Below the pieces are notes generated by a model. The model was not told the DNA's origin. It saw nothing but the letters and a program-made list of their open reading frames with translations, and did no database searches. The position numbers were made by a program, and so were the translations under genes. From Candidatus Babeliales bacterium (lineage in GTDB: Bacteria; Babelota; Babeliae; Babelales; JACPOV01), in NCBI GenBank assembly GCA_050250855.1, contig JBFWNW010000001.1, positions 32,001 through 96,000 on the forward strand: 64,000 bases of DNA. The letters run 5' to 3'. Below, piece after piece: positions 5,863 to 52,202 of this stretch (position 1 is the stretch's first letter; every line of letters starts with the position of its first letter).

Positions 5863-5964
5863 CCGTTCGTGCTGACCCCCTCGTCAGCTTGCAGCTGCTC
5901 GGGACTAAAGGCCATTTAGCTTGCCTGCCCTGAGCCTGTCGAATGGGTCGAAGCATTCGAACGG
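5863..5964 (+). repeat. REP-like palindrome carrying two nested insertions
   Basis: Removing 5876-5918 and 5924-5947 restores ccgttcgtgctgagcttgtcgaagcattcgaacgg. Confidence 0.85.
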
Positions 5965-5975
5965 TAATTAAAAAT

Positions 5976-6434
5976 TTAATTAACTTTTTCTAAATTCTCA
6001 TTACCAATAACTATTATTTCATTGCTATCTTTATCTTTGCATACGCAAACAGGAATATCTTTAATATGTTGGGGTAATACGTTTACTACCGCACTATATA
6101 ACATTTTTCTTTTTTCATCTTGTTCTTCTTTTTTATCGACAAATTGTTTTTTCTCTAGTTCTTGCTCTATTGTTTCTTGAGATTTTATCTTGAGGAAAAA
6201 TTCTTTTTTTTCTTCTGGTGTTAGCTTAGCAACACGTTCAAGTATAATGTTTCTGACATGATCTTGATTCGTTTCAGTTTCAGGTAGCTTTGGTCGATTT
6301 GCATCAAAAGGTTTGAATGTTTGTTGTACGGTTACCGTACAATCTTTATAAGGACCCGCAGTAATTTTATAGGTTTCTTGGCAGCACTGTATTGATTGGC
6401 TTGCTATCAAAGCGAAAACTATTATTTTTTTCAT
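5976..6434 (-). CDS. Secreted hypothetical protein (split KOW-like), paralog 2
   Basis: Signal peptide; YKITAGPYKD...PVCVC...IVIGNENLEK. Confidence 0.8.
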   Translation of the reverse strand: MKKIIVFALIASQSIQCCQETYKITAGPYKDCTVTVQQTFKPFDANRPKLPETETNQDHVRNIILERVAKLTPEEKKEFFLKIKSQETIEQELEKKQFVDKKEEQDEKRKMLYSAVVNVLPQHIKDIPVCVCKDKDSNEIIVIGNENLEKVN

Positions 6435-6518
6435 TTCACATCCCCTTTATTTTTGGTACCTTAATCTTATATATTTTTTTTTGAGGGAATCAAGAGTTTT
6501 ACAACAAAAAGGGAAACT

Positions 6519-8606
6519 ATGAATGTAAAAAGAAATTCTATTTTTGTACTATACCTTATTGGTCTTACGTTAATAAGTGGCGGGTGCTATGGATTTTTGC
6601 GGCGAGGATTTTCAATGAACTATACGGATATTAAAAATGTTGCTGATGTAAAAGCACTCTTTCCTACAACGGTTGGTCAAATAGAAGAGTTGGTAAACAA
6701 AACAAAGCAAAATGCGCAAAAGCGTGTTGCAGAAATTATTGCCGTGCCAGATGCAGAGCGTTCGTTTGCCAATACAGCATTTGCATTAGATGAAGCTTCT
6801 GGTTTTTATTTGTCAGTACCGATCTGTATTCTTGTGGTATTGAGTAATGTAAGTCCAGATGATGCGGTACGCGATGCTGCTAATAAATATTTGGTAGAAT
6901 TATCACAATTTGCGATTGATCTTTTTGGTCAAAATGTTGAGCTTTATAATGCATTTAAAGCATATACGCAAGGCAATGCTCGTAAAGAAACATTAAATGA
7001 TGAAGAGAAGTACTTTATTAAAGAAACCATGGAAGAGTTTAAGCGTGAAGGCTTAGATTTTTCTGAAGAAAAGCGTAACAAAATAAAAGAGCTTAAAAAG
7101 CAGTTAGCAGAATTAAGCAATGATTTTGAAAAAAATATTAATGAAGATAAAACAACCGTTATTGTTACACCAGCTGAACTAAAGGGCATGGACGAAGATT
7201 TTATTAAAGGACTTAAAAAGACTGATGATGGTAATTACATTTTAACCATTGATTATTCCGTTTATTATCCTATTATAGAATACAACGAACTTTCACCAGT
7301 CAGAAAAAAAATGTATCAAGCATTTTTGAATCGCGCTTATCCTGTTAATATCGAAGTGCTTAAGAAAGTAATCAGCTTACGTGATCAACTTGCCAAAGAG
7401 CTAGGCTACAAGAGTTTTGCAGATTTGAATATTGATGGTGAAATGGCAAAAAATTCTGAGCATGCACGTCAGTTTATTAATAACCTTATTGACCGTGCAA
7501 AGCAAAAATCTGAGCAAGAATTTGAAGAACTCAAAACAGATTTACCAGAATCGGTTGAGCTTGAACAGGGCAAAATCAAACCATGGGATGGTGCTTTTGC
7601 TAAAGAAACCTTTAGAAAAAAACATTACCAAGTTGATGATAGAGAAGTTAAAAAATATTTCCCTATGCAAAAAACAATTGATGGACTTTTATCTATTTAC
7701 GAAAAATTCTTTAACATACAGTTAAAAAAATCAGAGCTTAACGATCTTTGGGCGCCTGATTTGACGATGATTGAAGCCTATAAGGGTGATACCTTACTAG
7801 GTTATTTAATTCTTGATTTGTATCCACGTCCTAATAAATATAGTCACGCTTGTGCCATTACTGTGGTTCCTACGCTAAAAACAAAAGAGGGCAGAACGCC
7901 AGCAGTTGCCGTAGTACTTGCAAACTTCCCTAAACCTGTAGGCGATAAACCTTCATTGCTTGAACTGACTCAAGTTCGTACCTTTTTCCATGAATTTGGG
8001 CATGCCATTCATGGTATTTTAGGAGCAACAGAACTTTCTACCTTCTCAGGCTTGAATACTAAGAGAGATTTTGTTGAAATGCCGTCTCAAATGCTTGAAG
8101 AATGGCTTTGGGATGCTGAAATATTAAAATTATTAAGCAGCCATTATCAAACAGGCCAACCGTTGCCAGATGATATGATTAAAAAGATTCTAGCAACCAA
8201 GAACTTTTCTTCTGGCGCATGGGTTACCCAGCAAGCTCTCTATGCATTACTTGCTCTTGATTATTTTGCACCAGGTATGGCAAAAGATGTCATGCAAATA
8301 CTATTTGCCTTAGAAGAAAAATTAAAGCCTCATATGGTTGTTTACAAAGAGACCCATATGCCAGCAGGATTTGGCCATTTAATGGACTATGGGGCCAAAT
8401 ATTATGGCTATTTATGGTCAAAAGTATTTGCGCTTGATTTATTTAACCATATCAAGAAGTATGGGTTGCTGAATCCTGAGATAGGTGAACAGTATGCTCA
8501 AAAAGTTATAGGTAAAGGTGGATCAAAAGATCCTAACGAGCTCCTAAAAGATTTCTTGGGCAGAGAGCCGAATGCAGATGCATTCTTTGCTGATTTAGGA
8601 TTGTAA
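6519..8606 (+). CDS. M3 family zinc oligopeptidase (thimet oligopeptidase-like)
   Basis: FFHEFGHAIH, DFVEMPSQMLEEW, YGAKYYGYLWS, FLGREPN. Confidence 0.93.
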   Translation: MNVKRNSIFVLYLIGLTLISGGCYGFLRRGFSMNYTDIKNVADVKALFPTTVGQIEELVNKTKQNAQKRVAEIIAVPDAERSFANTAFALDEASGFYLSVPICILVVLSNVSPDDAVRDAANKYLVELSQFAIDLFGQNVELYNAFKAYTQGNARKETLNDEEKYFIKETMEEFKREGLDFSEEKRNKIKELKKQLAELSNDFEKNINEDKTTVIVTPAELKGMDEDFIKGLKKTDDGNYILTIDYSVYYPIIEYNELSPVRKKMYQAFLNRAYPVNIEVLKKVISLRDQLAKELGYKSFADLNIDGEMAKNSEHARQFINNLIDRAKQKSEQEFEELKTDLPESVELEQGKIKPWDGAFAKETFRKKHYQVDDREVKKYFPMQKTIDGLLSIYEKFFNIQLKKSELNDLWAPDLTMIEAYKGDTLLGYLILDLYPRPNKYSHACAITVVPTLKTKEGRTPAVAVVLANFPKPVGDKPSLLELTQVRTFFHEFGHAIHGILGATELSTFSGLNTKRDFVEMPSQMLEEWLWDAEILKLLSSHYQTGQPLPDDMIKKILATKNFSSGAWVTQQALYALLALDYFAPGMAKDVMQILFALEEKLKPHMVVYKETHMPAGFGHLMDYGAKYYGYLWSKVFALDLFNHIKKYGLLNPEIGEQYAQKVIGKGGSKDPNELLKDFLGREPNADAFFADLGL

Positions 8607-8649
8607 AGAAAAAAGAAAGGAGCGCCTGTGTCAGGGGCAAGCGCTCCTT
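8607..8649 (-). terminator. Terminator hairpin between convergent genes
   Basis: aaggagcgc/gcgctcctt stem; T tract on the minus strand. Confidence 0.65.
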
Positions 8650-8668
8650 GGAGTGAGAGTGACCGAAC

Positions 8669-9334
8669 TTATTGTTCCTCAGTTTGCATCATACTTTGCA
8701 TTTTAGCTTTTAATGTTTCTAAGTGTGCTGGTGTTACGTTGATATTTTTGAAGAATACATAGCACCACTCACCAGAACCAGGCATACCTTTGCGGAAGTT
8801 AGGGTTTTTGAACTCTACTAAAGGTTCGCCAATTTGTTTCATATCAATGCCAGAAGCGCATACTATGCCAATATCAGCATGTTTTTCAGCAAAATCATTG
8901 AATGCTTTGTACATATTGTGCATATAAACCGGCTGGTTGTTTGCGCCAATATATGTTTCTTTACCAACTTTTTCATAAAGGAATTCAGTTCCTTTTGGAC
9001 CTTTGAAGCTTGCAATCATAGTCATACCAGTCATAGGTGCTGCGCTGTGAACTATGTTATGATTACGTGTTTTAAGGGCCGCTACTGTTGCATTAAGATC
9101 GTTCATTACAGGGATATGTTTTTGTGTATGGAACATAGAACGCTTTTGATCAAATGGAATTACAAGGTTTTGTGCTTCCATTTCTGCTTCTGAAAATTGT
9201 TCTTCAACTTCACCAGCTTTAGTAGCGATTTGGCTTACTTTTGGCTGTTGTTTAGTAAATTTTGTTATTGTTGCGCCTTGCGCATTAATAACAGTTATCA
9301 GTACTAACAGACTGATAAGATTCGACTTATTCAT
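8669..9334 (-). CDS. Secreted hypothetical protein
   Basis: AAGGAG RBS, signal peptide. Confidence 0.75.
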   Translation of the reverse strand: MNKSNLISLLVLITVINAQGATITKFTKQQPKVSQIATKAGEVEEQFSEAEMEAQNLVIPFDQKRSMFHTQKHIPVMNDLNATVAALKTRNHNIVHSAAPMTGMTMIASFKGPKGTEFLYEKVGKETYIGANNQPVYMHNMYKAFNDFAEKHADIGIVCASGIDMKQIGEPLVEFKNPNFRKGMPGSGEWCYVFFKNINVTPAHLETLKAKMQSMMQTEEQ

Positions 9335-9370
9335 AAAGGAACTCCTTTTTTAGTAAGGTTAACAATACTC

Positions 9371-9856
9371 TTATTTATTCACTTTCGTATACCCTTGGCC
9401 TTCTTTTAACTCGAAGCACCAATATTTTTCATTATTTTTCGTCATTTCTTTTGCACTGGCAAAACTTTTAAATCCGTATACATTATACGGGTTGCTAGGT
9501 TCAAATCCTGGTAATAATTCTTTCTTTATGCATACATTAAATACAGTATCTTGGTGATCATGGCCAACTTGTGCTGCAATTGAATAATCAGGATTTTGGG
9601 CAAAACCAACGGCCTTCATAAGATCTACCGTGGTTTCTACCACAATACGATTACCAATTTTAGGAAAATTAATTCTTCCTACACGGGCAGCATTCACAAA
9701 GTAAGGAATTCTGCCACCTTCAGTACGCTCAAGACCTTTTTGTTGAGCAGGATTTATAAATACTGCATTATAGGTAACGGTAGCCACAGCATTAAGCTCA
9801 AGTGCAAAATTTGTTAGCAGTAACGTTATGCATATTAAAGATAATAAACGCTTCAT
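9371..9856 (-). CDS. Secreted hypothetical protein
   Basis: GGGGAG RBS, signal peptide. Confidence 0.75.
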   Translation of the reverse strand: MKRLLSLICITLLLTNFALELNAVATVTYNAVFINPAQQKGLERTEGGRIPYFVNAARVGRINFPKIGNRIVVETTVDLMKAVGFAQNPDYSIAAQVGHDHQDTVFNVCIKKELLPGFEPSNPYNVYGFKSFASAKEMTKNNEKYWCFELKEGQGYTKVNK

Positions 9857-10023
9857 ACTCTCCCCTTTTTTAAACCTTTTTTTCTTTAGGGCCTTATAAT
9901 ATCTTTCTAATATAAATATTACAAATAGAATTAAACATTATGCAAGGGTTTTGTGAAATTTTCTCTAGATGTTTTTGTGTGCATGCTATAGAATAGCAAA
10001 AAAGCTTTAAAGTAAGGGTTGTT

Positions 10024-10614
10024 TTGAAGTCCATAGAAAAGCGCAACGGCATAGTTTTAAAAAATTATTGTCCAAATAAGCAGAAGCTTATTATTTTTGA
10101 TGAAGAGCTTGGCAAGATAGAGGCCATTTTTTTTGCTCGAGGCCATCATATGATAAGTGCAGGAAGTTATTTATGCTATTATGCAGAGCGGACAAAGAAT
10201 CAGTGGTATAAACTTGAGGGGTATGAACTATTTCATGCCCCTTTGCAGCTTGCTCGGTATGAGCTCTATTTTTATCATCATGTTCTTGAGCTGTGTTATT
10301 ACTTCATTCCCTTTGAATTACCCCTTGATGGTATATTTGATTTACTTAAGTTTTTACTGTATTCATACCATGAAGTAGCAGATTCTTATAAAAAAAAACT
10401 TTTTTTATTGAGATTTTTTGTCCAATTAGGTATATATCCAGAAGAAGAGTTTGGGTTGCATACCATTGGTGATTATTTGCTTTCTCAACCTATTGACGTT
10501 ATCTTGAATACTGAAATTGTTTCAGAAAAAGCTCTTGAAAGATGGTTGTTTTTTTGTATAAAAAGCCATCCTCAAAGTGATTATTTTAAAACTATGCTAA
10601 TAGGGTATAAATAA
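10024..10614 (+). CDS. Divergent RecO-like DNA repair protein
   Basis: GIVLK...IFDEELGKI N-terminal OB-like pattern; LLRFFVQLGIYP resembles the RecO helical region. Confidence 0.55.
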   Translation: MKSIEKRNGIVLKNYCPNKQKLIIFDEELGKIEAIFFARGHHMISAGSYLCYYAERTKNQWYKLEGYELFHAPLQLARYELYFYHHVLELCYYFIPFELPLDGIFDLLKFLLYSYHEVADSYKKKLFLLRFFVQLGIYPEEEFGLHTIGDYLLSQPIDVILNTEIVSEKALERWLFFCIKSHPQSDYFKTMLIGYK

Positions 10615-13600
10615 TGATTCCTAATAAAAAAATTATTTTTTTGAGCTTGTTTATAGGTTTGTTCTCGATGCATTCTGCATCTGGTATTAAGTTGTTTGAT
10701 CCTGCACGTCTTTTTACGCCAGAAAAAGAAGATCGAGAAGATCAACTCTCTCTTCTTAAAGGGGAATATGAAAAGATTAGAGAAAATACTCAAGCAGAGC
10801 TAAAAAAGCTCCAAGAAAATATTGCAGTGGTTGAACGAGCTTTAAATGATGCAAAAAATCAACAAGCTGCATCGCCAGGACAGGATTTTTTAAATAAAAA
10901 AATTTCTCTTTTAAATGCTACTTACCAAGAAAAACTTAATATTCAATTTACCCTTAAAGAAATACCTCTTACTATAGAACAACAGATAAAAACGCTAGAA
11001 GAATACCTTAAAGCACCAGATTTTAAAGCCCTTATTTTGGAGCCTCGCTCTTTTTATCCTTATGATGTTGTTCAAAGCTCAATAAAAAAGGTTTTGGACC
11101 AAGAAGAGCGTATTAATAACCTGAAACTCCAAAGAAATGATGTAACGGTTGAGCTTGAAAATCGCAAAAAAAAGCTTGCCTCAGCTGCAAAAGATTACCA
11201 AGAAAAAAAGAAAGAGCAGGAGGAATTTAGCGCAAAAGCTCCAGAGAGCACTCCTTCTCAGGCAGAGCTTTCTTTTGAACAGCGTGGGGAGATTATTGAT
11301 TTAGAAGAACGTTATGATGGTTATTTGCAGCAACTTGCCGATTTGCAAGTTCAAGCTACCATGCGCAAAATAGCCCTTTTGAATACAACCATTTTTGTAG
11401 AAGAACAAAAACAAAAAGTTCTTGAAAATAATTTGGCTCGTGTAAAGGCGGGCTTGCGTATTACTGAAACTGAAGTTCAGGAAGCAAAAAATAGTGTAGA
11501 AAAACGTGATCAAAAGGCCCAAGCTTTACAGCAAACACGCCTAGAGGAAAGAAAAAAGCTTACCGCGTATAAAGAAAAGCTTAAAAGAGATCTAGAAATA
11601 GAAGCTAAGCGCTTGAATATGCCCGTTTTAGAGAAAGATGAATTAAGCTCTTGGGTTGTAGAGCAGCCATCCCTTGAAAGCTTTACGGCTTTGTGCCAAA
11701 TGGGTTTTTTGAATACAGAAATTAATGTAATTAATCGTAGAATAGATTTTTTGACGGCAGAAGTTGAGCTTGAAAAGGCTAAATCAGCGCGAGAAGCACT
11801 AAAATTTGCTATTTTAATGACCTGGCATGATCTTACTCATCGTAAATTTAAAGATAATGAGCATATTATTGCGGAACTAAAAAAATTCAAAGAGCGAGAA
11901 GCTGAAATTAATCGAGAGTTAAGCTCATTTCAGGATAAGCGCAATGCTGCAATTAATCAGTTAAATATTCAAAATAAAGAGCTCACCAACCTTCGAGCAT
12001 TTAGACAAGAGGTTGAAAAAGAACGCGAGGGCTTTTTTAGACGAGTTCCTGTTCGTTTTGTAAACTGTTTAAAGAGTTTACAGCGAGCAGAAAAAAACAT
12101 ACAAGATCAGATAGATATTAATGGTAAATTGATAGAAACCTATTCTAATCTGATTGCTACGCTCGATAGTACTATTAAAGAGATTAATATTATTACCATT
12201 GAGCTGAAAACTAAAAGTATTTGGCAGCGATCTCAATATGCTATTTCATGGCAAGGGGTAAAAAATATTATTCCAGACTTGGGATATTTTATTACCGACC
12301 TTTACCAGATAGCGGTTTCATTCTTTGCTAATTTAAAGTGGTCTAATATTCTTGCAACCTTTAACCGAATTTTTAATGCCCCAGGAAAAATTTTATTATG
12401 GGCTATTGTATTATTTTTACTTATTTCATGTTTTATATTTTTACGCAATAGGTTACCTGAATTTAGAGCATATTTAACTTCATTTTCTACAAAAGGTTTT
12501 TTGGCTGTTATTATTGAGCTGAGTGTATGTACTCTATTATTCATTGAGCGTTATTTGGTTTGGCTTTATATATGGGCCGTTATTTTTACAATGGTCAATT
12601 TTGATGTTGTTTCAGATTTATTTCTTGAAATAGTTTTTTACTTAGCGTCTATAGGTTACCTAATCTATTTTATAAGAAAATTTATTTATTATGTTATTTC
12701 TTATAATCGTAGGCATAATTATGTTATTTTTGCTCAAGGTTTTGAGAGACGTTTTATAACGGTAACTTCAATATTTTTTTATTTGACGATAGCAGTTCTT
12801 TTCTTTAGAGAGGCATTTATTTTAGCAACCGTTCATAAATCTGAATTACCCACTATCTTACTGGCAGGATATTCAATTTTTCTTCGCTCCTTACTAATTT
12901 TCTCAATTGGCAAAAACGAAATTTTGGGCTTAATAACACCCCGTGGCCCTATAACAACCTGGCTTGCATATGGGGTCGAGCATTATTATTACCCAATTTT
13001 AATTGCTATTACTGTTCTTATGGTTATGAGTGATCCTTATGTTGGAGGCTATGGTAACCTTGTTTCATATATTATTTGGGGTACCATAGGAACGGTTATA
13101 ATAACGCGTCTTTTATATATCATTCACACCTATGCGAAAAATTACTCTGAAGTTGTTTTCTTTTCAACCGAAGAAGAAGTAAAGAGAGAACGTTTTGGTT
13201 ATGCCAAAACATGGTACGGTATTTTTGCTATAGCACTTTTTTTGATTTTTATCTTAGTGGGCCTTTTATTTATTGCTCGCATATGGCATTTACCATTTTC
13301 TCTTGAAGATATTAGGAAATTTTTTGATTATGGTATTTTCAAGACCGGTATTGAATCTAAAAGTGGTGAAGATATTTGGTTTACACCCGGTAAACTTTTT
13401 GTCTTGCTTGGTTTTGTTGCCGGCGGCTTTTTGGCAGCTGTTGCTTTCAATCGTTTTGTGCTACACCGTATATTCGATATTTTACCAGTTGATCTTGGTG
13501 TGCAAAATACGGTTGTAAGTATTACGCGGTACTTGATTGTTATTATTTTTATATATTTAGGTTTTTCTTGGGCAAATCTGGGTAACTTATTAATAGCAAT

Positions 13601-14189
13601 CGGTATCGTTATCGGTTCGATTGGTTATATTGTTAAAGAACCGCTTGGTGACTTTATTTCATACTTTATTATTTTAGTACAACGTCCTATTCAGATTGGT
13701 GATTTTATTATGCTTGATCACGATACGCAGGGTGTTGTGCGCAAAATAACGCCACGATCAGTGATTTTGCGTCGTAAAAATAGCTATAGTATTATATTGC
13801 CTAACTCAATGATTTTGAATCGTTCAGTAAACAATTGGAGCTATGGCAGGAACTTCATAGCATTCGATGACATTTACTTTACCGTAAATTATCAGGCAGA
13901 TCCTGAAGAAGTCAGAAAACTTATGCATCAAATACTTGATGAAAGTACAGAAGTACTCAAAAGCCCCCAACCCATTATTCGCTTACATGAATTTGGGGAA
14001 TATGGCTTTGTATTTATGGTGCGTGGTTTTATTAGCAACATTAATATTCTACGCCAGTGGGATATAGCAAGTAACATTCGCTTTGCTATTATTGCAACGC
14101 TTCGTAAACACAAAATTAGCTTGGCAATTCCTGCTCGCGTATTGCTGCAGGATTCACAAAAAGCTTCAATGCTGCCAGATATTACTTAA
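10614..14189 (+). CDS. Large MscS-family (MscK-like) mechanosensitive channel
   Basis: Signal peptide, long coiled coil, multiple TM helices, RPIQIGDFI...ILPNS...NWS MscS domain. Confidence 0.9.
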   Translation: MIPNKKIIFLSLFIGLFSMHSASGIKLFDPARLFTPEKEDREDQLSLLKGEYEKIRENTQAELKKLQENIAVVERALNDAKNQQAASPGQDFLNKKISLLNATYQEKLNIQFTLKEIPLTIEQQIKTLEEYLKAPDFKALILEPRSFYPYDVVQSSIKKVLDQEERINNLKLQRNDVTVELENRKKKLASAAKDYQEKKKEQEEFSAKAPESTPSQAELSFEQRGEIIDLEERYDGYLQQLADLQVQATMRKIALLNTTIFVEEQKQKVLENNLARVKAGLRITETEVQEAKNSVEKRDQKAQALQQTRLEERKKLTAYKEKLKRDLEIEAKRLNMPVLEKDELSSWVVEQPSLESFTALCQMGFLNTEINVINRRIDFLTAEVELEKAKSAREALKFAILMTWHDLTHRKFKDNEHIIAELKKFKEREAEINRELSSFQDKRNAAINQLNIQNKELTNLRAFRQEVEKEREGFFRRVPVRFVNCLKSLQRAEKNIQDQIDINGKLIETYSNLIATLDSTIKEINIITIELKTKSIWQRSQYAISWQGVKNIIPDLGYFITDLYQIAVSFFANLKWSNILATFNRIFNAPGKILLWAIVLFLLISCFIFLRNRLPEFRAYLTSFSTKGFLAVIIELSVCTLLFIERYLVWLYIWAVIFTMVNFDVVSDLFLEIVFYLASIGYLIYFIRKFIYYVISYNRRHNYVIFAQGFERRFITVTSIFFYLTIAVLFFREAFILATVHKSELPTILLAGYSIFLRSLLIFSIGKNEILGLITPRGPITTWLAYGVEHYYYPILIAITVLMVMSDPYVGGYGNLVSYIIWGTIGTVIITRLLYIIHTYAKNYSEVVFFSTEEEVKRERFGYAKTWYGIFAIALFLIFILVGLLFIARIWHLPFSLEDIRKFFDYGIFKTGIESKSGEDIWFTPGKLFVLLGFVAGGFLAAVAFNRFVLHRIFDILPVDLGVQNTVVSITRYLIVIIFIYLGFSWANLGNLLIAIGIVIGSIGYIVKEPLGDFISYFIILVQRPIQIGDFIMLDHDTQGVVRKITPRSVILRRKNSYSIILPNSMILNRSVNNWSYGRNFIAFDDIYFTVNYQADPEEVRKLMHQILDESTEVLKSPQPIIRLHEFGEYGFVFMVRGFISNINILRQWDIASNIRFAIIATLRKHKISLAIPARVLLQDSQKASMLPDIT

Positions 14190-14400
14190 TATTGGTTTTT
14201 TCTTCTACGGTCTTTCTGATTTTGCGCCATAATTGTGCTTCAAAGAAGCCATAGAAAATCATAGCAAGCGAGAAGAATATTAAAATCCAGTTAAGCCACT
14301 GCTGCAAGATATTGAGAGTATGGAGTAATAGTACTATACCGAAAAGCATAGTTATTACGCCACGGAACTCTTTACTTAAAAAATTAAAATCTCCAAACAT
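14182..14400 (-). CDS. Small membrane protein
   Basis: AAGGAG RBS before ATG 14400; two hydrophobic helices. Confidence 0.7.
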   Translation of the reverse strand: MFGDFNFLSKEFRGVITMLFGIVLLLHTLNILQQWLNWILIFFSLAMIFYGFFEAQLWRKIRKTVEEKTNIK

Positions 14401-14463
14401 AGCATACTCCTTTTTATTTTCAGGGTAGCACATGCCGGAAGGCAAAAGCAAGAGATTAAGCTT

Positions 14464-14673
14464 TTAGAGCTTGGATTTAGGTGTTTTTACTGGAGCTTTT
14501 TTCTCTATATGGGGATCGGTTTGAGGGGCCTTTTCATCTGTCTTGGCCGTAGGAGGATTGATGGTTTGAGATTGGTTTTGAACTGATGATTCTACAGGTC
14601 TCATATTATCTAGAGCAGTAATAGATAGCACGATCACCATAAGACCTCCAGCAATAATATTGATAGGTTCCAT
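14464..14673 (-). CDS. Small hypothetical membrane-anchored protein
   Basis: Abuts the upstream stop; AAGGAG RBS; N-terminal TM segment. Confidence 0.6.
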   Translation of the reverse strand: MEPINIIAGGLMVIVLSITALDNMRPVESSVQNQSQTINPPTAKTDEKAPQTDPHIEKKAPVKTPKSKL

Positions 14674-15213
14674 TTATTCTCCTTCTTTTAAAAATCCTTC
14701 TATAGGCCACGGTGTTTCAAGATCAATATGATAATCATGAAGTAGTTGCTCGTGAGTCAATATTACTATTTTTTTTATGGGAATAGTACTTGTACGTATA
14801 GTTTTTAAAAGTCCTTCCATGAGCATCCATTTTTCATACAGCGCATACTGTTTTTCAAAAGGATTGTGATCAAGAGATATGAGTGCCAGATTATCATGCG
14901 CTACGGCAACGGTTTGCACCGTAATTTTTTTAGGTATAACTTTTTCTTCATGCATAAGAGAAAACCAAGCATTTACCAAGTAATGTACTGTTTGGCTCAT
15001 ATCTTCTGACCATAACAATTCTATTTCTTCATGATGCCATTGGTGAGTGCGCCAAAAAAAAAGAGTTACTTTTTTTTTTGTAATAGCAGTTCTATCAAAA
15101 GAATAATCTGTATTGAATGGGCTACGAAAAATTATAAGATTATTAAGATAGACGTAAAGCAGAGCTCCTATGAGCAAAGATGCAGTAGAGAGTATTACTA
15201 TATTTTTTTTCAT
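14674..15213 (-). CDS. GerMN-like domain protein
   Basis: N-terminal anchor, VTLFF..., IP...V...ISL, E..L...LLKT, IKKIVIL pattern; coupled to the amidase gene. Confidence 0.55.
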   Translation of the reverse strand: MKKNIVILSTASLLIGALLYVYLNNLIIFRSPFNTDYSFDRTAITKKKVTLFFWRTHQWHHEEIELLWSEDMSQTVHYLVNAWFSLMHEEKVIPKKITVQTVAVAHDNLALISLDHNPFEKQYALYEKWMLMEGLLKTIRTSTIPIKKIVILTHEQLLHDYHIDLETPWPIEGFLKEGE

Positions 15214-18046: not shown

Positions 18047-18049
18047 AAA

Positions 18050-18700: not shown

Positions 18701-18713
18701 AGGAAATCTCCTT

Positions 18714-24519: not shown

Positions 24520-24596
24520 GTGCCCGTAGCTCAGCTGGATAGAGCGACAGACTTCTAATCTGTAGGTCGCAGGTTCGAATCCTGCCGGGCACACCA
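24520..24596 (+). tRNA. tRNA-Arg (anticodon UCU)
   Basis: Full cloverleaf: GTGCCCG/CGGGCAC acceptor, ACAGA-CTTCTAA-TCTGT anticodon arm, TTCGAAT T loop, encoded CCA. Confidence 0.97.
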
Positions 24597-27387: not shown

Positions 27388-27542
27388 GAACTTATCATTA
27401 AATTGTTAAAAACCGTTTAAATGCTTCGACAGGCTCAGCACGAACGGTTGTAATATAACTATTTTTTATTCCGTTCGCCCTGAGCTCGTCGAAGGGTACG
27501 AACACAAAAATATATTTTTGTGAATTTATCAATAAACACTAA
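27385..27542. mobile_element. About 158-bp MITE-like unit: imperfect TIRs enclosing a REP doublet
   Basis: REP(-) 27413-27447, 23-nt spacer, REP(+) 27471-27503; ends AAGAACTTATCATTAAATT and rc TAGTGTTTATTGATAAATT. Confidence 0.8.
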
Positions 27543-39574: not shown

Positions 39575-39681
39575 AATCTTTAGGGTACAGTTTTGTCATA
39601 TGAATAGATTAAAACAGAAATATTTTGAGCTTGCTGCATTTCAATATCATTATTTATTGAAGCATAAAAAATGGCTTAGTA

Positions 39682-40842: not shown

Positions 40843-40909
40843 GACCTCTTTAAAAGTGCAAGAGCTTCAATACATTTATATTGATGCAGCATTAATCTAA
40901 TAGGCTATA

Positions 40910-41303: not shown

Positions 41304-41304
41304 T

Positions 41305-43297: not shown

Positions 43298-43440
43298 AAT
43301 CACGCTCCTTACAGTATCTATTTTTCAGGTTTAAAAAGCTTATTATACTACTATTTTACTATAAAAAGGCCTATTTGAAAAATGCCTGCTGTCCCTGCTT
43401 TTTTGCAAGAAAAGGCCTATCTGTGCTATACTTTGTCATT

Positions 43441-44181
43441 ATGACTAAAATTCTTTCTTCCTACGGGGCTCTCAGCAGCCTTTTTTATGAATTAACCAAT
43501 ACCTATGCCTCGCAAAAAGAGGTAGCTTTTTATACTTCGTTTCTGGCGCAAAAAGATGATAAAATCTTGGAAGCAATGTCTGGTGCGGGCCGGTTGATGG
43601 TACCACTTTTAAAGCAAGGGTATCATGTTGAAGGTGTTGATAATTCTTCTGCTATGCTTGAGCGGTGCAAAGTGCGCTGTGCATCGTTAAAGTTAAATCC
43701 CGCACTGTATGAACAATCACTTGAACGTATGACGTTGCCGCATCAGTATGCATTAGCAACCATTTGCGTTGGCTCGTTCCAGCTTATTACCAATCGAGCT
43801 TCTGCGCTACAAGCATTAAAAAATATATATGCTCATATGCAGCATGGTGGCAGTTTGCTTATTGATTTTTTTATTCCTGAAGAACCTGAAGATCCATATT
43901 CAGAGCAATTAATTAAAATAGATGAACGACGTTCATTACACTTAGCGCGACACAATGTATTTGATGCCGATAAAAAATTAGCAGATGCAGTATGTATCTA
44001 TTCACTGCTCCTTGATGGGGTTGTACAGCAAACTGAACAAGAATGTATTCGTGTTACTTGGTATACCGATGATGCATTAAAAGCATTACTAGAAGAAGCT
44101 GCTTTTGTGGTACAAGGTATCTACACGGAATATTTTGATGATGAAAATCCTTCGTATATAGTGCATGCGCAGAAAGTTTAA
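43441..44181 (+). CDS. Class I SAM-dependent methyltransferase
   Basis: ILEAMSGAGR, GVDNSSAML, GG.L.ID. Confidence 0.88.
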   Translation: MTKILSSYGALSSLFYELTNTYASQKEVAFYTSFLAQKDDKILEAMSGAGRLMVPLLKQGYHVEGVDNSSAMLERCKVRCASLKLNPALYEQSLERMTLPHQYALATICVGSFQLITNRASALQALKNIYAHMQHGGSLLIDFFIPEEPEDPYSEQLIKIDERRSLHLARHNVFDADKKLADAVCIYSLLLDGVVQQTEQECIRVTWYTDDALKALLEEAAFVVQGIYTEYFDDENPSYIVHAQKV

Positions 44182-44393
44182 TTTTTATCATTTAGAAAAA
44201 GCTGGAAATCTTTTATTATCTCATCAGATTTTTGTATGAATTGATCTATGGCAGCATATTGTCCATCAAAAAAACTACGAATTTTAATTCTTAGAAGGAA
44301 TAATTGTTGTTGTGTATCAATAGTAGTTGTGTAGTCCATGCTTGTACTGAACGTGCAGTATAGTAATATGGCGAAAATGAAGCGATATTTCAT
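44178..44393 (-). CDS. Small secreted hypothetical protein
   Basis: Signal peptide followed by MD. Confidence 0.5.
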   Translation of the reverse strand: MKYRFIFAILLYCTFSTSMDYTTTIDTQQQLFLLRIKIRSFFDGQYAAIDQFIQKSDEIIKDFQLFLNDKN

Positions 44394-44488
44394 ATAATGA
44401 TTACTCAGGTTTAAAAACTACATTTTTAGTATATACTTTTTAATTAAAGATATTTTTACATAAAGTTTTTACGGAAAGGAAGCATTGT

Positions 44489-44968
44489 ATGAAGAAAAAA
44501 TTAATGGTATGTATGAGCGTAGCGCCATTACTTGCTTTTACAGCCTGTTCATCAAAAGTAGAAGAAAAAAATACGGCACAAAAAACAACACAAAGGAATA
44601 ATGCTATGGAAAAAAAACGTGTAAAAAAAACATCAGGCCTTGAATATGAAATTATGCAAGAAGGCTCTGGGAAGTCTCCGCAAGCTGGTAAACGCGTAAA
44701 AGTACATTATACCGGGTGGTTGAATGAAAAGGGTAATCCAGGAACAAAATTTGATAGCAGTGTAGATCGCGGTACACCATTCCAGTTTACTATTGGCGTA
44801 GGCCAAGTAATTAAAGGCTGGGATGAAGGTGTTATGGATATGAAGATGGGCGAAAAACGCCGTTTGTTTATTCCTGCACATCTTGGTTACGGTATGCGCG
44901 GCGCAGGAGCGGTAATTCCACCAAATGCAGATTTAATTTTTGATGTTGAATTATTGGGTGTTGAGTAA
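44489..44968 (+). CDS. FKBP-type peptidyl-prolyl isomerase, probable lipoprotein
   Basis: [40 protein letters not shown] lipobox-like. Confidence 0.95.
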
Positions 44969-44991
44969 ATTTTAGATTTTGTAATTCTTCT

Positions 44992-45028
44992 AAATAATAA
45001 AGGCCGCATTCAGCGGCCTTTATTATTT
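44992..45028. terminator. Bidirectional terminator
   Basis: aaataataaaggccgc / gcggcctttattattt perfect stem between convergent genes. Confidence 0.8.
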
Positions 45029-46336
45029 GGTATCTTTTTTATATTTTTTCTTTTCAGATGTATTAGTATCTAGTGCTGCTTTCTTTTTGCTCGGTGCTGT
45101 TTGTAGCTTTTGCTGAGCCAGATATGCCAGAGCTGTTTTGAGCGGCATACATTCTTTTTTAATTTCTTCAAAATTTTGTATCATACTCTCTGCCATCTCT
45201 TTATTATTTTCTTGTGACGGAATAAAAGTAAAATTATTGATATCACTATTGTTAGCAGTAGTAAGGTTTGTTGAACCGATGCCCACTAAAAAATCATTGT
45301 CATTATTTTTTCTGACAAAACCTTTTGTGTGCATAATTGTTGGAAATTTTCCTACCTTTGTATTTTCATCAACATTGAATACATGCACGGGAGCATGTTC
45401 TGGCAGGTTCTGGAAGTATTCAAGATTACTCTTTAAGCAAGTGCGATCAGTCAGTAAAAGTTCCAATTTATTGTTTTGTATAAGATCTCTTATAGTAGCC
45501 TGCGCTTCAGGGTCATTAAAAGCATACAAAGCGATCCATGCCTTTTCTTGAGTGTTTGCAAAACGCTGTGTAACCGTTTTTGCAATATTATGTTTTGTTG
45601 AAAAAATAGTAGTTGGTTTTTGTGGCGTAATTTCAAGAGCAGGATTATTTTTATAATTTATTATCGATTTAGTCGGCGTAGTTGGTGTTTTTAAAGATTC
45701 ATGGAACTTTAAATGTGTTTCAAAACTTTCTTTATTAACGTCATATAAACTTAATTCTTTATTTGATTCTTTACCCTCAAAAGACATGGTCATATACGTC
45801 GGATTACGTGATCCATCAAATATACGGTACTGAGTGCCTTTTTCAGGATGCTGATAAGTCCAGCCAATTGTTTTTGTATGCAATGTTTGCGGCAATGTTT
45901 TTTCATCAGTAGTATGTATTTTTTTACGCACCGAAGAATTTTCATTAAAGAAAGTAAGTGAGCTGTTTGGGGCATTTTTTACTGCTTGCTGAATGCTGGC
46001 AAGGCCCTTTGATATATGCTTATGAGAATTGCTGAGCATAACGGAAACATGTACGCCAGCCTTAATTTTTTCTATTAAAATGTTAACAAACTCTAGATCG
46101 GTTAAGCAAAAAAGATGAGCAAAAATTTTATCACCAGGTTGTGTTTTTTGTACTGACGGTTTTACTATTTTAAAGCCGCCATCATCCTGGGGGTTTGAAA
46201 AGAAAGCAGTTGGTTTATTTGGAGAAATAAAGGTCTTTGCCTGGTAGGGAATAATCTGTCTGTCCATACCTGAAAGCATAGGTGCCATAGTTATGGTAAA
46301 AAAACAGGTTAAAAGAGCTGTTTTCAGATTTTTCAT
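45023..46336 (-). CDS. Secreted phospholipase D-superfamily protein (two HxK...GSxN motifs)
   Basis: LHTK...GSRNPT and MHTK...GSTNLT; IALYAF; signal peptide. Confidence 0.8.
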   Translation of the reverse strand: MKNLKTALLTCFFTITMAPMLSGMDRQIIPYQAKTFISPNKPTAFFSNPQDDGGFKIVKPSVQKTQPGDKIFAHLFCLTDLEFVNILIEKIKAGVHVSVMLSNSHKHISKGLASIQQAVKNAPNSSLTFFNENSSVRKKIHTTDEKTLPQTLHTKTIGWTYQHPEKGTQYRIFDGSRNPTYMTMSFEGKESNKELSLYDVNKESFETHLKFHESLKTPTTPTKSIINYKNNPALEITPQKPTTIFSTKHNIAKTVTQRFANTQEKAWIALYAFNDPEAQATIRDLIQNNKLELLLTDRTCLKSNLEYFQNLPEHAPVHVFNVDENTKVGKFPTIMHTKGFVRKNNDNDFLVGIGSTNLTTANNSDINNFTFIPSQENNKEMAESMIQNFEEIKKECMPLKTALAYLAQQKLQTAPSKKKAALDTNTSEKKKYKKDTK

Positions 46337-46496
46337 GGTTAAATTTTCTCCATTTTTTATAGTTCTAATCATACTACCAGTTTACCTTAAATTTTCTATT
46401 TGTCAATGGCCTGTGGAGGGTGTTTTCCCTGTTTTTTTAAAAATATTGTAGTTTTTTCCTAACTATGCGTAAGCTGTAATCAAAAAGGATTCTGGT

Positions 46497-47909
46497 ATGA
46501 AAAAAAGCCTTCTTTTTCTTTTACTGTTTTCAGGTTCAGTTTACTGTTTTTATAGTAAAAAAGTATGTTTAATTGCCCCAAAAACAGTTCAGGGAGCGTC
46601 TACGCCTTGTTTGCCCTGTGTGCCTTCTTTTGAACCTGAGGCACAAAAAATAGCTGTAGAAGCTGTAGATCGTGACGTGGATCCACGTTATTACTGGACT
46701 CCCTTATTGTGGGCTATTGCTCTTAATGATACAAAAGAGCTTGCTCGTATTTTAGACCAGATAGAAAATGATTATAAGCAAGCAGCAGAGCGCCTTGCGC
46801 AGCTTATATGGCAAGATTGGGCGGGAAGAACATCGCTCTATTTGGCTGTTGAATGGATAGAACGTGATGCGCTTAAAATGCTGCTTGAGCGTGCAAGCCG
46901 TTGGTTTGCTAATGACCCCAAACTTTTTTTTGAGTATCTTGCAAAACAAGAATCGTTACTTGCATGGTCTCCCTTGCATGGTGCTGCGTATGGTAGCTTT
47001 TCAGAAGGAATTGCGTTATTAATTACGGCAGCAAAAAAAATGTTTGATAGTCGTTCAGAAGAGTTTAAAGCATTTATTAATTTGAAAGATAATTTTGGTA
47101 GAACGCCGTTGAATCTTTGCTTTGAAATATGGGATCGCTTGTATATTGCAAAGCACGGTGGCATTGCAAGTTTTGTACCAGAGTTAGAAGATTCATACCA
47201 TGCAATTCTAAAAAAAGATTTATTAAAATATGCAGCATATAGTGGTTTTAACAAAGAGCTTAATGAAGTGTTGCGCCATGGCATTCAGCTCTATTCGCAA
47301 CCAAGTTATAAAAGAAACACGCGCCGTTTGCAAGGAGTATTGCAAGAAGCAGGATTAGCATATGATTTTAGTAGAAAAGAATTTTTAGATTTTATTACGG
47401 CACGTGATGAAGCCGGCTGGTCTCCTTTAATGAATGCAGCGGCTGATGGTAATGCTGAATATGTAGAACTTATTTTAAGAGCGGCAAATGCTTTTTATAA
47501 AGATGATAAAGTATGGGTTGCTTTTATTATGAATAATAATGATACGCATGGCAGAACGGTGTGGCATATAGCAATTTCGCGCCGTCATTTGGATGTAGTA
47601 AAAGCATTAATACGTGTGCAAAAAGAAATTGCTGGCAATAGAAAAAAACCATTCTTGCGTTTAGCCACCCATAGGACAGAGTTAAACGGTTTTACACCGC
47701 TCATTGCAGCAGTTTATGAAAGTGCTGATGATAATGTCACCTTCGCTATTATAAAACTTTTAGTAGAGCGCGCAGCTGAAGTTTTAGGAAAAGGCTCACG
47801 AGAGTTTTTATCATTTATTAATCGCAAAGATTATAATGGCTACACCGCATTGAGTTATGCAGTAACACCACGCATACAAAAATTTCTAAAGGAATATGGC
47901 GCTGAATGA
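46497..47909 (+). CDS. Secreted ankyrin-repeat protein
   Basis: WTPLLWA, GRTSLYLA, WSPLHGA, GRTPL, GWSPLMNAA, GFTPLIAA, GYTALSYA. Confidence 0.9.
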   Translation: MKKSLLFLLLFSGSVYCFYSKKVCLIAPKTVQGASTPCLPCVPSFEPEAQKIAVEAVDRDVDPRYYWTPLLWAIALNDTKELARILDQIENDYKQAAERLAQLIWQDWAGRTSLYLAVEWIERDALKMLLERASRWFANDPKLFFEYLAKQESLLAWSPLHGAAYGSFSEGIALLITAAKKMFDSRSEEFKAFINLKDNFGRTPLNLCFEIWDRLYIAKHGGIASFVPELEDSYHAILKKDLLKYAAYSGFNKELNEVLRHGIQLYSQPSYKRNTRRLQGVLQEAGLAYDFSRKEFLDFITARDEAGWSPLMNAAADGNAEYVELILRAANAFYKDDKVWVAFIMNNNDTHGRTVWHIAISRRHLDVVKALIRVQKEIAGNRKKPFLRLATHRTELNGFTPLIAAVYESADDNVTFAIIKLLVERAAEVLGKGSREFLSFINRKDYNGYTALSYAVTPRIQKFLKEYGAE

Positions 47910-47948
47910 TGATTCATCAGTAATATTTAGCATATAAAATTCTATATT

Positions 47949-48176
47949 CCGTTCGTGGTGAGGGTTTTTCGAAGAAAAACGTCTCGAACCACTTGAACTC
48001 AAAATTAAAAAATTCATATTTTTTTTAAATAGATTTGTCGTTATGGTTCGACCCTTCGTCGAGCTCAGGACAGGAACGCAAACTTTAGTTTGCTCCTCAC
48101 CACGAACGGGATATAAAAAAGTGATTTCGCTCATCCTGAGTGATGTGCGTAGCGCATTGTATCGAAGGATAAGAGC
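47949..48176. repeat. Cluster of three REP-like palindromes, one with a nested insert
   Basis: 47949-47991(+), 48044-48109(-) with insert 48052-48074, 48128-48176(+). Confidence 0.88.
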
Positions 48177-48182
48177 TACATT

Positions 48183-48830
48183 TCATCGCGCAGCGTTATA
48201 CAGTTCCTTTAATGCAGCAACAGGATCTGGGGTACTAAAGATTGCAGCGGCAACACCAACTTCATCGCAGCCATTGCGTGCAAGTTCAGCAATATTAGTA
48301 CTATTAATACCGCCATCCATGCAAATCATAAAGTTCATTTTTTCTTCTTTGCGATAGGCAGCAAGTTTTTTAAGGCGCTCCCATGAACTTTCTAAAAATC
48401 GCTGTCCAGAAAAGCCAGGATCAACGGACATCAGTAAAACGGAGTCTATCATGCCAAGATAAGGAAATAATTTTTCTAGGGGCGTATTTGGCTTAATGGC
48501 GATATTTGCATGCCATTTATTTTCTCTTATGCGTTGAATTGCTTCTGAAATATTTTTTGTATTTTCAATATGAAAAGAAACGGTGCTTGCGCGCTTGATC
48601 TCTATTTTTTCTAAAAATTTTTCAGCATTTTCAATCATTAAATGGACAAAAACTGGTTTTGTTGTTGCATGGGCAATTGCTTTGATAAACATTGGCCCCC
48701 ATGTTAAATTAGGCACAAAATGGTTATCCATGATATCAAGATGAAAACCATCGCAGTGGGGTTCTAAATTTTTTATGACAGTATGCAGATTCAAAAGGTC
48801 AGCAGAAATAAGTGAGGGGTAAATTTTCAT
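48183..48830 (-). CDS. rpe: Ribulose-phosphate 3-epimerase
   Basis: PSLISAD, HLDIMDNHFVPN, VHLMI, MSVDPGFSGQ, DGGI. Confidence 0.96.
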   Translation of the reverse strand: MKIYPSLISADLLNLHTVIKNLEPHCDGFHLDIMDNHFVPNLTWGPMFIKAIAHATTKPVFVHLMIENAEKFLEKIEIKRASTVSFHIENTKNISEAIQRIRENKWHANIAIKPNTPLEKLFPYLGMIDSVLLMSVDPGFSGQRFLESSWERLKKLAAYRKEEKMNFMICMDGGINSTNIAELARNGCDEVGVAAAIFSTPDPVAALKELYNAAR

Positions 48831-48913
48831 GATTAGATCCTTTTTTTTGTGTATACTAATCCTTGTACTATGTTTTTTCTGTTAACACAATGAATTTTTA
48901 AGAAAGATAGTTT

Positions 48914-49303
48914 ATGATACAAACTCCGCGTGTTTCAATGCTTATTTTAATGCAAAATAAATTAGATGAAGCAATTGCTTTCTACACTAAAATTGGATTA
49001 ACCTTAAACTTTCAAATTAAAGATCAGTGGGCAGAAATGGAGCTGCATGGTATTAAGTTTGGTTTAGCAAAAACAGATACAGAGCTTCCTGAGCGAAGAA
49101 CGGGCATCATTTTGGAGCTTGATGACTTGTATACATGGCGCAAGGAGCAAGAAGAGCAGGGGATCATCTGTTCAGAGCCTGTTGAGCGTTTGCATGGTAT
49201 CATGGCAAGTATAAAAGACCCTGGTAATAATATTTTAGAGCTTTATCAGCCAACGCCACATAAGGTTCATGAGATGGCAGAAAAAATGAAAAGCGATAAG
49301 TAA
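48914..49303 (+). CDS. VOC/glyoxalase family protein
   Basis: AIAFY, KDPGNNILELYQ. Confidence 0.85.
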   Translation: MIQTPRVSMLILMQNKLDEAIAFYTKIGLTLNFQIKDQWAEMELHGIKFGLAKTDTELPERRTGIILELDDLYTWRKEQEEQGIICSEPVERLHGIMASIKDPGNNILELYQPTPHKVHEMAEKMKSDK

Positions 49304-49495
49304 AAATAGTCACATTTTCTTCAAAATTCAGGAAGAAAAGTTTAGTCTTGTGATGTAAATATTGCATTCATTTTAAATCTCGGTATACTGATCTTGAGTT
49401 GAATATAAGGCGAATTTGGCGACTCTTATTTTTTTAAATAGATTCATTTTTTTTCTAAGGTATTTTTAACAATTTTTATAAAGCAGGGAGGATGT

Positions 49496-49783
49496 ATGTT
49501 TGAGAAAATCAAACCATTGCATGACCGAGTTTTGGTAAAGCGCATAGAGATTGAAGGTACTACCCCTGGTGGTATCATTATCCCTGATGCAGCCAAAGAA
49601 AAAGCACAAACAGGCAAAGTTGTTGCTGTTGGTGCTGGTCGCGTAACAGCAGAAGGAAAAGTTGTTCCTATGGCAGTTAAAGCTGGTGATGTAGTCTTTT
49701 TTGGCAAATATGCAGGGACTGAAGCTGGTGATGATCATCTTATTGTTCGAGAAGAAGAACTTTTAGGTGTAGTAGAACGCTAA
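49496..49783 (+). CDS. groES: Co-chaperonin GroES
   Basis: [26 protein letters not shown]. Confidence 0.97.
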
Positions 49784-49794
49784 AAATTTATTAA

Positions 49795-51453
<1,659 letters not shown>

Positions 51454-51482
51454 GCCAACCTAAAGTTCTTTTTAAAACTATT

Positions 51483-51510
51483 AAAGGCCCCGCATTGTCG
51501 GGGCTTTTTT
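51483..51510 (+). terminator. Intrinsic terminator after groEL
   Basis: gccccg/cggggc stem plus T tract. Confidence 0.8.
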
Positions 51511-51940
51511 ATTTCTTGTACCCAAGTTTTTGATAATAATCTATATCATCCTGCGCACGTTTAATTAATCGCTGAGCATATTGTCTCAATTGCTGCTGTG
51601 CCGGTTTGAAATTAGGATCATTAGCAAGCTCTAAAGCGACGTTAATTTTTTCAGTATCAGAAAGATTGCTTTCATCTAAAGCACTCGTTACTTCAAGGGC
51701 AAGATAGGTAAGCGTTCCTTCATTATTTTGTGCTTTTATTTCAGCTATTTTTTTCCATACAGCGCCTTGCTTGCCACCAATAATTTTACCAGCAGAACTG
51801 GGCTGTTTTATCGCTTTATTGAGCATTTCTATTTTTTGATAATCTTTGTTTTGTTGCGGAGAAATGGGAATAATAGCATTGCTATAATGAGCTACTAATG
51901 CAGCGCATAATATGCCAGAGAAATATAATTTTTTCTTCAT
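51509..51940 (-). CDS. Secreted hypothetical protein
   Basis: AAGGAG RBS, signal peptide. Confidence 0.75.
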   Translation of the reverse strand: MKKKLYFSGILCAALVAHYSNAIIPISPQQNKDYQKIEMLNKAIKQPSSAGKIIGGKQGAVWKKIAEIKAQNNEGTLTYLALEVTSALDESNLSDTEKINVALELANDPNFKPAQQQLRQYAQRLIKRAQDDIDYYQKLGYKK

Positions 51941-51999
51941 ACAGTCTCCTTTTTTCTTTTATACTACTGTATGAATTTTTTAAAAAACAAGAAAAGATT

Positions 52000-52202
52000 T
52001 AGAGCTTATCCATAAATTCAAAAAAATGATATTTTGTGTTCGTACCCTTCGACCCATTCGACAAGCTCAGGGTCAGGGCGAACGGAGTGAGAAATGAGCG
52101 CAGCCTTTACTTCCCTGAGCGTTGTCCAATCTAATGATCAGGGTGAACTGAATAAAAGTACTATGAGCCGTTCGTGCTGAGCCTGTCGAAGCATTCGAAC
52201 GG
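52000..52202. mobile_element. MITE-like REP doublet unit (inverted homolog of 27385-27542) with internal insertions
   Basis: End TAGAGCTTATCCATAAATT; REP(-) 52038-52085 with nested 52053-52072; degenerate copy near 52138; REP(+) 52168-52202. Confidence 0.82.

Follow-up and report, generated by a model that had tools for sequence, protein, structure and literature searches.

Nested REP-like hairpins with a fixed internal junction in a Candidatus Babeliales genome and in other bacterial phyla

The window considered here comprises 64,000 nucleotides of a Candidatus Babeliales bacterium (G000:C1:32001-96000, on contig JBFWNW010000001.1 of assembly GCA_050250855.1, a 1.22-Mb draft genome of 11 contigs with 36% G+C and 95% completeness); in three of its loci a short hairpin repeat of the repetitive extragenic palindromic (REP) type lies within another copy of the same kind of repeat. 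This observation of three REP-in-REP loci is confirmed, and all three are members of one REP-like hairpin family. The nests share their architecture, a fixed junction (G^TCGAA, the caret marking the joint) and stems which pair in nested order, and at one orthologous site in Polaromonas a nested and a simple REP differ by a single clean indel of 24 nt. We think it probable that in this family, which is spread over many phyla, a REP module is placed at G^TCGAA of a resident REP, that the placement can be repeated, and that the composites so formed spread as a whole.

The REP consensus reads CCGTTCG, a 3-nt stem strand S, TGAGCNNG, TCGAA, the opposite strand S' and ..CGAAC; genome-wide listings give the fuller grammar CCGTTCG, S, TGAG, a fill, TCGAA, S', T-N-CGAAC(GG). 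Simple REPs, in which a 13-nt loop (TGAGCNNGTCGAA) is closed by a perfect 3-bp stem, are present in 86 copies, the main stems being TGC/GCA (type A), CCC/GGG (type B) and TGG/CCA (type C); a type A copy at 52167-52201 (+) may serve as the un-nested reference form. About 15 copies are nested. Other copies carry a hairpin in the loop, namely GGTTTTTCGAAGAAAAACGTC (12 copies, ten in TGG and two in TGC hosts, among the former class the type C REP at 47948-47996, +), GAGCAAAC..GTTTGCGTC (12 copies; 11 TGG, one TGC) or GAGTCCGGCG..GCCTGGACGTC (eight copies; seven TGG, one TGC); across these classes an identical fill occupies one position within different host stems. The elements are dispersed intergenic palindromes and include inverted pairs of type A (-) and type B (+), a trait of REPs and REPINs. 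The core CTGAGCNNGTCGAA, with one mismatch allowed, has nine matches in the window where shuffled sequences lead one to expect 0.17.

Locus 1 lies on the plus strand and begins with the 5' arm of a type A host, CCGTTCG-TGC-TGA (5863-5875), which matches the 5' arm of simple type A REPs; it is followed by a 48-nt hairpin module (5876-5923), by the inner unit CCTG-CCC-TGAGCCTG-TCGAA-T-GGG (5924-5947) and by the host 3' arm TCGAA-GCA-TTCGAACGG (5948-5964). Locus 2, on the minus strand, has a type C (TGG/CCA) host whose 5' arm and usual apical hairpin GAGCAAAC..GTTTGCG (48075-48109) precede the 23-nt unit CCTG-TCC-TGAGCTCG-ACGAA-GGG (48052-48074) and the host 3' arm TCGAA-CCA-TAAC (48040-48051); twelve "empty" paralogues with the apical hairpin read ..GTTTGCGTC-TCGAA-CCA. 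At locus 3, likewise on the minus strand, the type B host arm CCGTTCG-CCC-TGA (52073-52085) and the host 3' arm TCGAA-GGG-TACGAAC (52038-52052) enclose an inner core, CCC-TGAGCTTG-TCGAA-T-GGG (52053-52072), which stands in place of the host pentaloop. Folded as single-stranded DNA (ssDNA), locus 1 (5863-5964) reaches -22.6 kcal/mol (z = -3.9) and locus 3 forms one continuous nested hairpin (z = -2.7); the fold of locus 2 (z = -1.7; 11 of 200 shuffles as good) is no better than chance. Nesting lengthens the hairpin in these folds: the GA of TGA pairs with the TC of TCGAA, and a repeated T/GAA internal loop remains.

The three units named in the original prediction (5924-5947 on the plus strand, 48052-48074 and 52053-52077 on the minus strand) proved exact, letter for letter; each lies directly 5' of the host's TCGAA and in the host's orientation, the host stems are of three types (TGC/GCA, TGG/CCA, CCC/GGG), and no target duplication is visible, all as it had stated. 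Its account of what had been inserted needs revision in part. The foreign block of locus 1 is not an insert of 24 nt but a composite of 72 nt (5876-5947) with 10 copies in the genome, and excision of 5924-5947 alone, which had been said to restore a near-canonical REP, does not yield a canonical one. Locus 3 is indeed nested, but it is most cleanly read as a core of 20 nt (52053-52072) in place of the host's GCNNG; in this reading the leading CCTGA of the proposed insert 52053-52077 belongs to the host. The idea of a small CCTG-led unit survives as a module of 20-24 nt which is often (G)CCTG-led, but at locus 1 it is the 72-nt composite that is propagated whole.

Within the genome, three nested forms account for these loci. 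In the long form 72 nt, made up of the 48-nt hairpin module and the unit, separate the host's TGA from its TCGAA; its 10 copies have CCC (six), TGC (three, locus 1 among them) or TAC (one, with a further insertion) as host stem. The short form, CCC-TGA-(CCC-TGAGCTTG-TCGAA-T-GGG)-TCGAA-GGG, has three copies including locus 3, with CCC hosts throughout. The form of locus 2, the GAGCAAAC hairpin followed by the 23-nt unit, has two copies, the second at C3:175340, and a deletion derivative at C1:411189. A tabulation of flanks, which the original prediction had put forward as a check, was made for the unit pattern CCTG, YCC, TGAG.., CGAA, GGG: there are 14 copies in the genome, all within hosts, and TCGAA follows directly in 10, with no match to the reversed control pattern. 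The fixed position claimed for the insertion thus held in this genome, and it also held in other Babeliales genera, in more than ten phyla and in hosts with different stems, but four of the 14 unit copies do not adjoin TCGAA, two being followed by a GGTTTTTC hairpin and then TCGAA, and two by another hairpin and TCGAA-GGG. Among 99 paired cores 14 are followed by TCGAA and 15 are preceded by CCTG (both in 10, CCTG only in five, TCGAA only in four, neither in 80), and the two features go together (Fisher p = 1.6e-7). Eight of the 10 TCGAA-adjoining unit copies belong to the 10-copy composite family and two are of the locus 2 type.

Some arrangements in the genome depart from these forms. Between C2:152030 and 152143 one long composite carries an additional 32-nt insertion between TG and AG of the TGAG of its inner core, and this piece, CCGTGCCCGACGCAGC..GCGAAGTCTG, recurs beside other REPs. 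Outside the window (C1:389365-389500, C4:155600-155700, C4:106880-106940 and others) arrangements of 70-71 nt are found which consist, in this order, of a host 5' arm (CCGTTCG-TGC-TGA), an inverted REP core and another complete REP; since inverted placements do exist, the rule that the inner unit always has the host's orientation is in part a product of how copies were searched.

The same architecture is found in three Comamonadaceae genomes with 17, 9 and 6 nested copies, which read CCGTTCG-S1-TGAGCNNG-GCCTG-TCC-TGAGCNNG-TCGAA-GG(G/A)-TCGAA-S1'. The inner unit is near-constant, its GCCTG-TCC leader and 5' stem being fixed and its loop NN and 3' stem (GGG or GGA) variable; the outer stems covary, with GGC, CGC, CCC, GAC, CAC or TCC as S1, and an inverted simple REP usually comes next to the nested element, giving a doublet. 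REPs in the empty and in the filled state, a comparison which the original prediction had proposed, occur in Polaromonas: at an orthologous REP (G126:C50, about position 24560) Polaromonas G126 is nested and its close relative G136 is simple, reading CCGTTCG-GGC-TGAGCCTG-TCGAA-GCC. The difference is one clean gap of 24 alignment columns between G and TCGAA, across which the flanks align (74% mean column identity over the whole, other gaps included), with no target duplication, no host bases lost and a placement ambiguity of 1 nt; insertion at a fixed short target without duplication is a trait of IS200/IS605-like elements. At a second such locus (L199) G169 has a simple GGC REP and G126 a nested one between the same flanks, and at three further loci G126 has an entire doublet together with its nest where its relatives have none. 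Nested copies number 17 in G126, one in G136 and none in G169, G138, G167 and G165, and simple copies 125, 30, 33, 24 and 5 in the first five of these; the counts support the nested state as derived in G126. Filled and empty sites at L197 did not give crisp boundaries for the doublet ends, and no target rule emerged there.

For a view across phyla, one genome per species was scanned with the pattern CTGAGCNNGTCGAA, 3-4 nt, TCGAAG, which gave at least 123 loci, and 129 sites were parsed; the counts that follow hold among the matches listed. Nesting is seen in more than ten phyla, judged by record titles, including Chloroflexota, Bacteroidota, Pseudomonadota, Cyanobacteria, Actinomycetota, Acidobacteriota, Planctomycetota, Nitrospirota, Spirochaetes, Saccharibacteria and others. 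At 60 of the 129 sites an outer 5' arm that is an exact complement (the reverse complement of S1', plus TGA) lies within 40 nt, compared with a single site for the non-complemented control; with one mismatch allowed the figures are 79 and 18. When up to 90 nt are permitted, a matched outer arm is present at 65 sites, and at 41 of these 65 the outer stem is unlike the inner one. The spacings cluster at 7 nt (12 cases) and at 15-17 nt (33 cases). Of the 39 pairs spaced by 11-21 nt, 22 retain the host half-loop TGAGCNNG intact, followed by a linker of 4-6 nt, most commonly GCCTG (six), CTTG (three) or CCTG (three). The nesting may be deep: at L113 there are five 5' arms and, matching them, five TCGAAGGG arms, and at L045 an additional complete unit lies 5' of the TCGAA of the outer level.

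Nearer to the window, the nested junction was found in three and the CCTG-led unit in six of a sample of 121 Dependentiae genomes. G109 carries CGTTCG-TCC-TGAGC..CCTG-(T/C)CC-TGAGCTTG-TCGAA-GGG-TCGAA-GGA, that is, a TCC/GGA host; G023, from another Babeliales family, has a TGG/CCA host with a different apical hairpin and then the unit, a layout of module plus unit which resembles locus 1. One of the two junction matches in G041 proved to be a simple REP with a GGGTCGAACGG arm and not a nest.

How the nests may arise can be sketched from these arrangements. A short REP module, consisting of a 3-bp stem and a 13-nt loop and usually led by 4-5 nt, (G)CCTG, for 20-24 nt in total, would be placed between the last G of the loop and the TCGAA half-site of a resident REP, in the host's orientation, without target duplication and usually without loss of host bases. 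As the module brings its own G^TCGAA site, the process could be repeated, which would give arrays of the Russian-doll kind; composites once formed would spread as whole REPs or REP doublets, which explains the 10 copies of the 72-nt composite seen at locus 1. The step itself may consist in a single-strand cut in the loop at G^TCGAA, after which a REP module is either joined or copied by priming from the nick. The candidate enzyme is a small GIY-YIG nuclease of the UPF0213-like kind, encoded between REPs, whose cut site the junction G^TCGAA would mark.

The genome has two small GIY-YIG frames and a large one. PF01541 matches frames of 97 and 111 amino acids, and the intact protein on contig C2 has 91, in keeping with a single-domain protein of roughly 90-100 amino acids. 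The window frame (61258-61551, +) is of the UPF0213-like clade and 58% identical to the intact C2 copy; a type C REP lies upstream of it (61178-61244, +), an inverted one directly downstream (61553-61603, -) and a further one beyond (61692-61757, +). REPs enclose such a gene in the window, on contig C2 and in the genomes G126 and G124 and, as read from coordinates, also in G055 (two loci), G075 and G069. In G126 it forms a cassette between a REP (+) and a REP (-), AT-rich by eye; the REP-bracketed protein of G126 looks homologous by eye. Small proteins of G124, G125 and G121 form a first clade with the two G000 proteins (32-58% identity), and a second, Ssn-like clade (in G136 and G124) is 27-35% identical to them; in G169, G138 and G167 all GIY-YIG matches are of UvrC size. 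The nearest solved relatives are the UPF0213 proteins BH0048 (PDB 1ZG2, E = 5e-15) and EF2693 (PDB 1YWL, E = 8e-13), structural-genomics entries named "hypothetical" whose names give no link to repeats, and NCBIfam has no family for the nuclease. The Y1 transposase family PF01797 has no match in this genome (95% complete); it matched six of 14 control genomes. Among the Dependentiae REP cores are distributed patchily: 40 of the 121 genomes have them, and the copy number per genome ranges from 0 to 130. A protein of the first clade (E at most 1e-20) is present in 36. The gene occurs in 22 of the 29 genomes with at least three REP cores versus 14 of the 92 with fewer, an association whose strength is overstated by the p value of 3e-9 because related genomes are not independent.

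At L232 (G126:C14, about 6130-6650) an AT-rich open frame lies between the upstream REP and the GIY-YIG gene, and the G126 nuclease frame runs into a nested-type REP at its own 3' end. The second-clade gene at L233 (G136:C38) is flanked by another hairpin repeat, TGTCATTGCGGGC..GCCCGCAATGACA, SRM-like by eye, and in G136 and G138 (L227/L228) this repeat type is found at the site of the G126/G169 REP doublet.

Several points weigh against the placement of modules at G^TCGAA by such an enzyme. The weakest link is the joining: no DNA-joining activity is known for GIY-YIG nucleases, so that a host ligase or copying from the nick would be needed. The window frame has no in-frame ATG, GTG or TTG upstream of 61342, the ATG at 61265 being shifted from the frame by one base; probably this copy is frameshifted at its very start. 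The C2 copy is intact. The gene is missing from seven of the 29 REP-rich Dependentiae genomes, and the genome of a cyanobacterium with deep nests, Phormidium, gave no GIY-YIG match. Six genomes of the same family as G000 have neither the nested form nor the CCTG-led unit, and REPs are almost absent from them. No empty allele of the three window loci was found in Logan contigs (one study, three runs); these contigs end at REPs, and the sole variants were paralogue mappings. The nested copies within the genome are not independent; since most of them go back to a small number of composites, the separate events represented in this genome alone may be no more than four to six. In Polaromonas, the polarity of the indel at G126:C50 is unrooted because the outgroups have no REP there, and L177 is ambiguous, G169 being simple, G126 nested and the closest relative, G136, without the host REP.

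Part of the evidence is what one would expect if replication slippage or template switching on hairpin DNA had duplicated 5' and 3' arms, with neither a dedicated enzyme nor a mobile unit, an explanation which we regard as unlikely for the nests as a whole. At 50 to 69 of the 129 sites the 3' arm is duplicated and a matching outer 5' arm is lacking, and as such 3'-arm-only duplication is common, arm slippage evidently also occurs; G136 has an additional 7-nt 3' arm relative to G126, some arrays have identical arms and no linker (L143, L047), and inner and outer stems are identical in 13 of the 39 pairs spaced by 11-21 nt as well as in the three copies of the locus 3 type, which are CCC inside and outside. 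The original prediction had held that random flanks, or inserts matching their own host stems as in local slippage, would speak against it, and that insert and host stems differ in two of the three cases; overall the flanks are not random, and inner and outer stems differ at 41 of the 65 matched sites, but at locus 3 they are identical and slippage may have acted there. Against slippage in general, the outer pair at those 41 sites is still complementary, the 24-nt indel is flanked by a direct repeat of only 1 nt, one near-constant unit sits in six host stems in the Comamonadaceae, and a single slip cannot put a 5' and a 3' arm on either side of a retained loop.

It is also conceivable, but in our view quite unlikely, that a nested allele arose once or rarely and was then distributed by ectopic gene conversion or recombination between REP doublets together with transposition of whole doublets. 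The spacer of the nested G126 copy at L199 differs from that of its G169 orthologue and equals that of another G126 copy, which makes gene conversion between doublets possible there and weakens this locus as a second case of insertion; the three nest-bearing doublets of G126 which its relatives lack and the 10 copies of the 72-nt composite also fit. However, 3' of the junction the homology amounts to no more than about 8 nt, broken up wherever the host stems are unlike, and the repeated origin of lineage-specific linkers (CTTG, CGCC, GACT, CCTG) in distant phyla would be left unexplained; moreover, conversion is compatible with placement at G^TCGAA as a secondary route. Very improbable, finally, is the notion that the composites are not products of insertion at all but selected structured elements such as protein-binding platforms, terminators or RNAs. 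Another Babeliales family retains a composite similar to the one at locus 1, the folds of loci 1 and 3 beat their shuffles and outer stems covary, but the fold of locus 2 is at chance level, the REPs have no Rfam match at E values up to 1, deep nests consist of 3-bp stems with large internal loops between them, and the nested or simple state varies between close relatives. A ribozyme-like reading of the motif (CUGA..GAA) was dropped as residues of the hammerhead core are missing.

Placement at G^TCGAA may be taken a step further: the module of about 24 nt might be a true mobile element, moved as ssDNA by the UPF0213-like single-domain GIY-YIG nuclease, which would cut its own loop at G^TCGAA and have the REP loop as its preferred landing site. 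This we put forward tentatively and with some doubt; if true, the module would be among the smallest mobile elements known, and the nested arrays of more than ten phyla would preserve, like fossils, a history of repeated self-insertion and give the cut site without experiment. The original prediction, which had an enzyme nicking at the fixed position, is partly supported, its outline being largely right, some details wrong and the enzyme unproven.

Among described systems the closest is that of the Ssn proteins, GIY-YIG nucleases with NTS/SRM hairpin repeats (Chenal et al., Nat Commun 2025, PMC11893778). There as here, the gene of a single-domain GIY-YIG protein of about 90-100 amino acids lies between hairpin repeats in inverted orientation, and the repeat occurs in tens to hundreds of copies, patchily across phyla (PMC11893778); a gene flanked on both sides by its own repeat is found here in the window, on C2 and in G126, G055, G075 and G069. 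The two appear to differ in protein clade, that of Ssn being cd10448: identity to the Ssn-like small proteins of G136 and G124 is 27-30%, versus 49-58% within the clade studied here. They differ also in the repeat: the SRM consensus HGTCWY..YYVSBRH..WNVSBRG..RNCYNB (PMC11893778) has no match on either strand of this genome with its 91 REP cores, and Ssn, which is site-specific and acts on ssDNA only, cleaves upstream of the hairpin, whereas the junction here is within the loop. In the main text of the Ssn paper the words "nested" and "tandem" do not appear (PMC11893778).

With REP/REPIN-RAYT systems the repeats share the short intergenic palindromes, the frequent inverted doublets and an enzyme gene flanked by the repeat (compare the Discussion of PMC11893778 and 10.1101/2021.07.10.451892), and here, too, whole doublets are present or absent between related species. 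In contrast to those systems there is no Y1 (HUH) transposase in this genome, the enzyme is of another class, and no GTAG head is seen. Self-nesting at a fixed position of the loop is not known as a trait of REPINs. Elements like IS200/IS605 resemble the module in that their ends are defined by hairpins, their position relative to a short sequence is fixed, the target is not duplicated and they are seamlessly present or absent, but the module is only 20-24 nt long, without genes and without an HUH enzyme; strand transfer by a GIY-YIG protein is not known. The insertion sequences IS1397 and ISKpn1 target the loop of enterobacterial REPs; they are about 1.4 kb long, encode their own transposase and make a target duplication. 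The REP loop is thus a specific insertion target in both cases, but here the inserted thing is itself a REP. Literature searches with core and peptide strings found no paper giving the sequence of this repeat, and none was found that links GIY-YIG with repetitive extragenic palindromic elements; a broader search yielded nothing relevant.

The nests bear on how REP-type repeats multiply outside RAYT systems and on what small GIY-YIG nucleases do in organisms other than Neisseria. From nesting at a single nucleotide position one would predict G^TCGAA as the site of cleavage and joining and a minimal substrate of about 24 nt; should the nuclease be site-specific on ssDNA, it would add to the Ssn toolbox a second specificity class with a different recognition logic. 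Nests also explain many of the repetitive spurious reading frames in annotated genomes.

Beyond the nests, REPs of type A (-) and type B (+) are usually paired about 20-25 nt apart, with similar AT-rich spacers, in the window (5400-5440, 27420-27500, 52030-52201) and genome-wide, and these pairs have a common downstream stretch, ..ACAAAATAT..TTTGAATTTATGGATAAGCT..; the shared spacers and downstream stretch indicate that the REPs are parts of a larger mosaic repeat. In the metagenome runs many contigs of other, G+C-rich organisms join the cores 52177-52192 and 54115-54131 across 14-23-nt spacers of their own, from which it appears that the hairpin family is abundant across that community.

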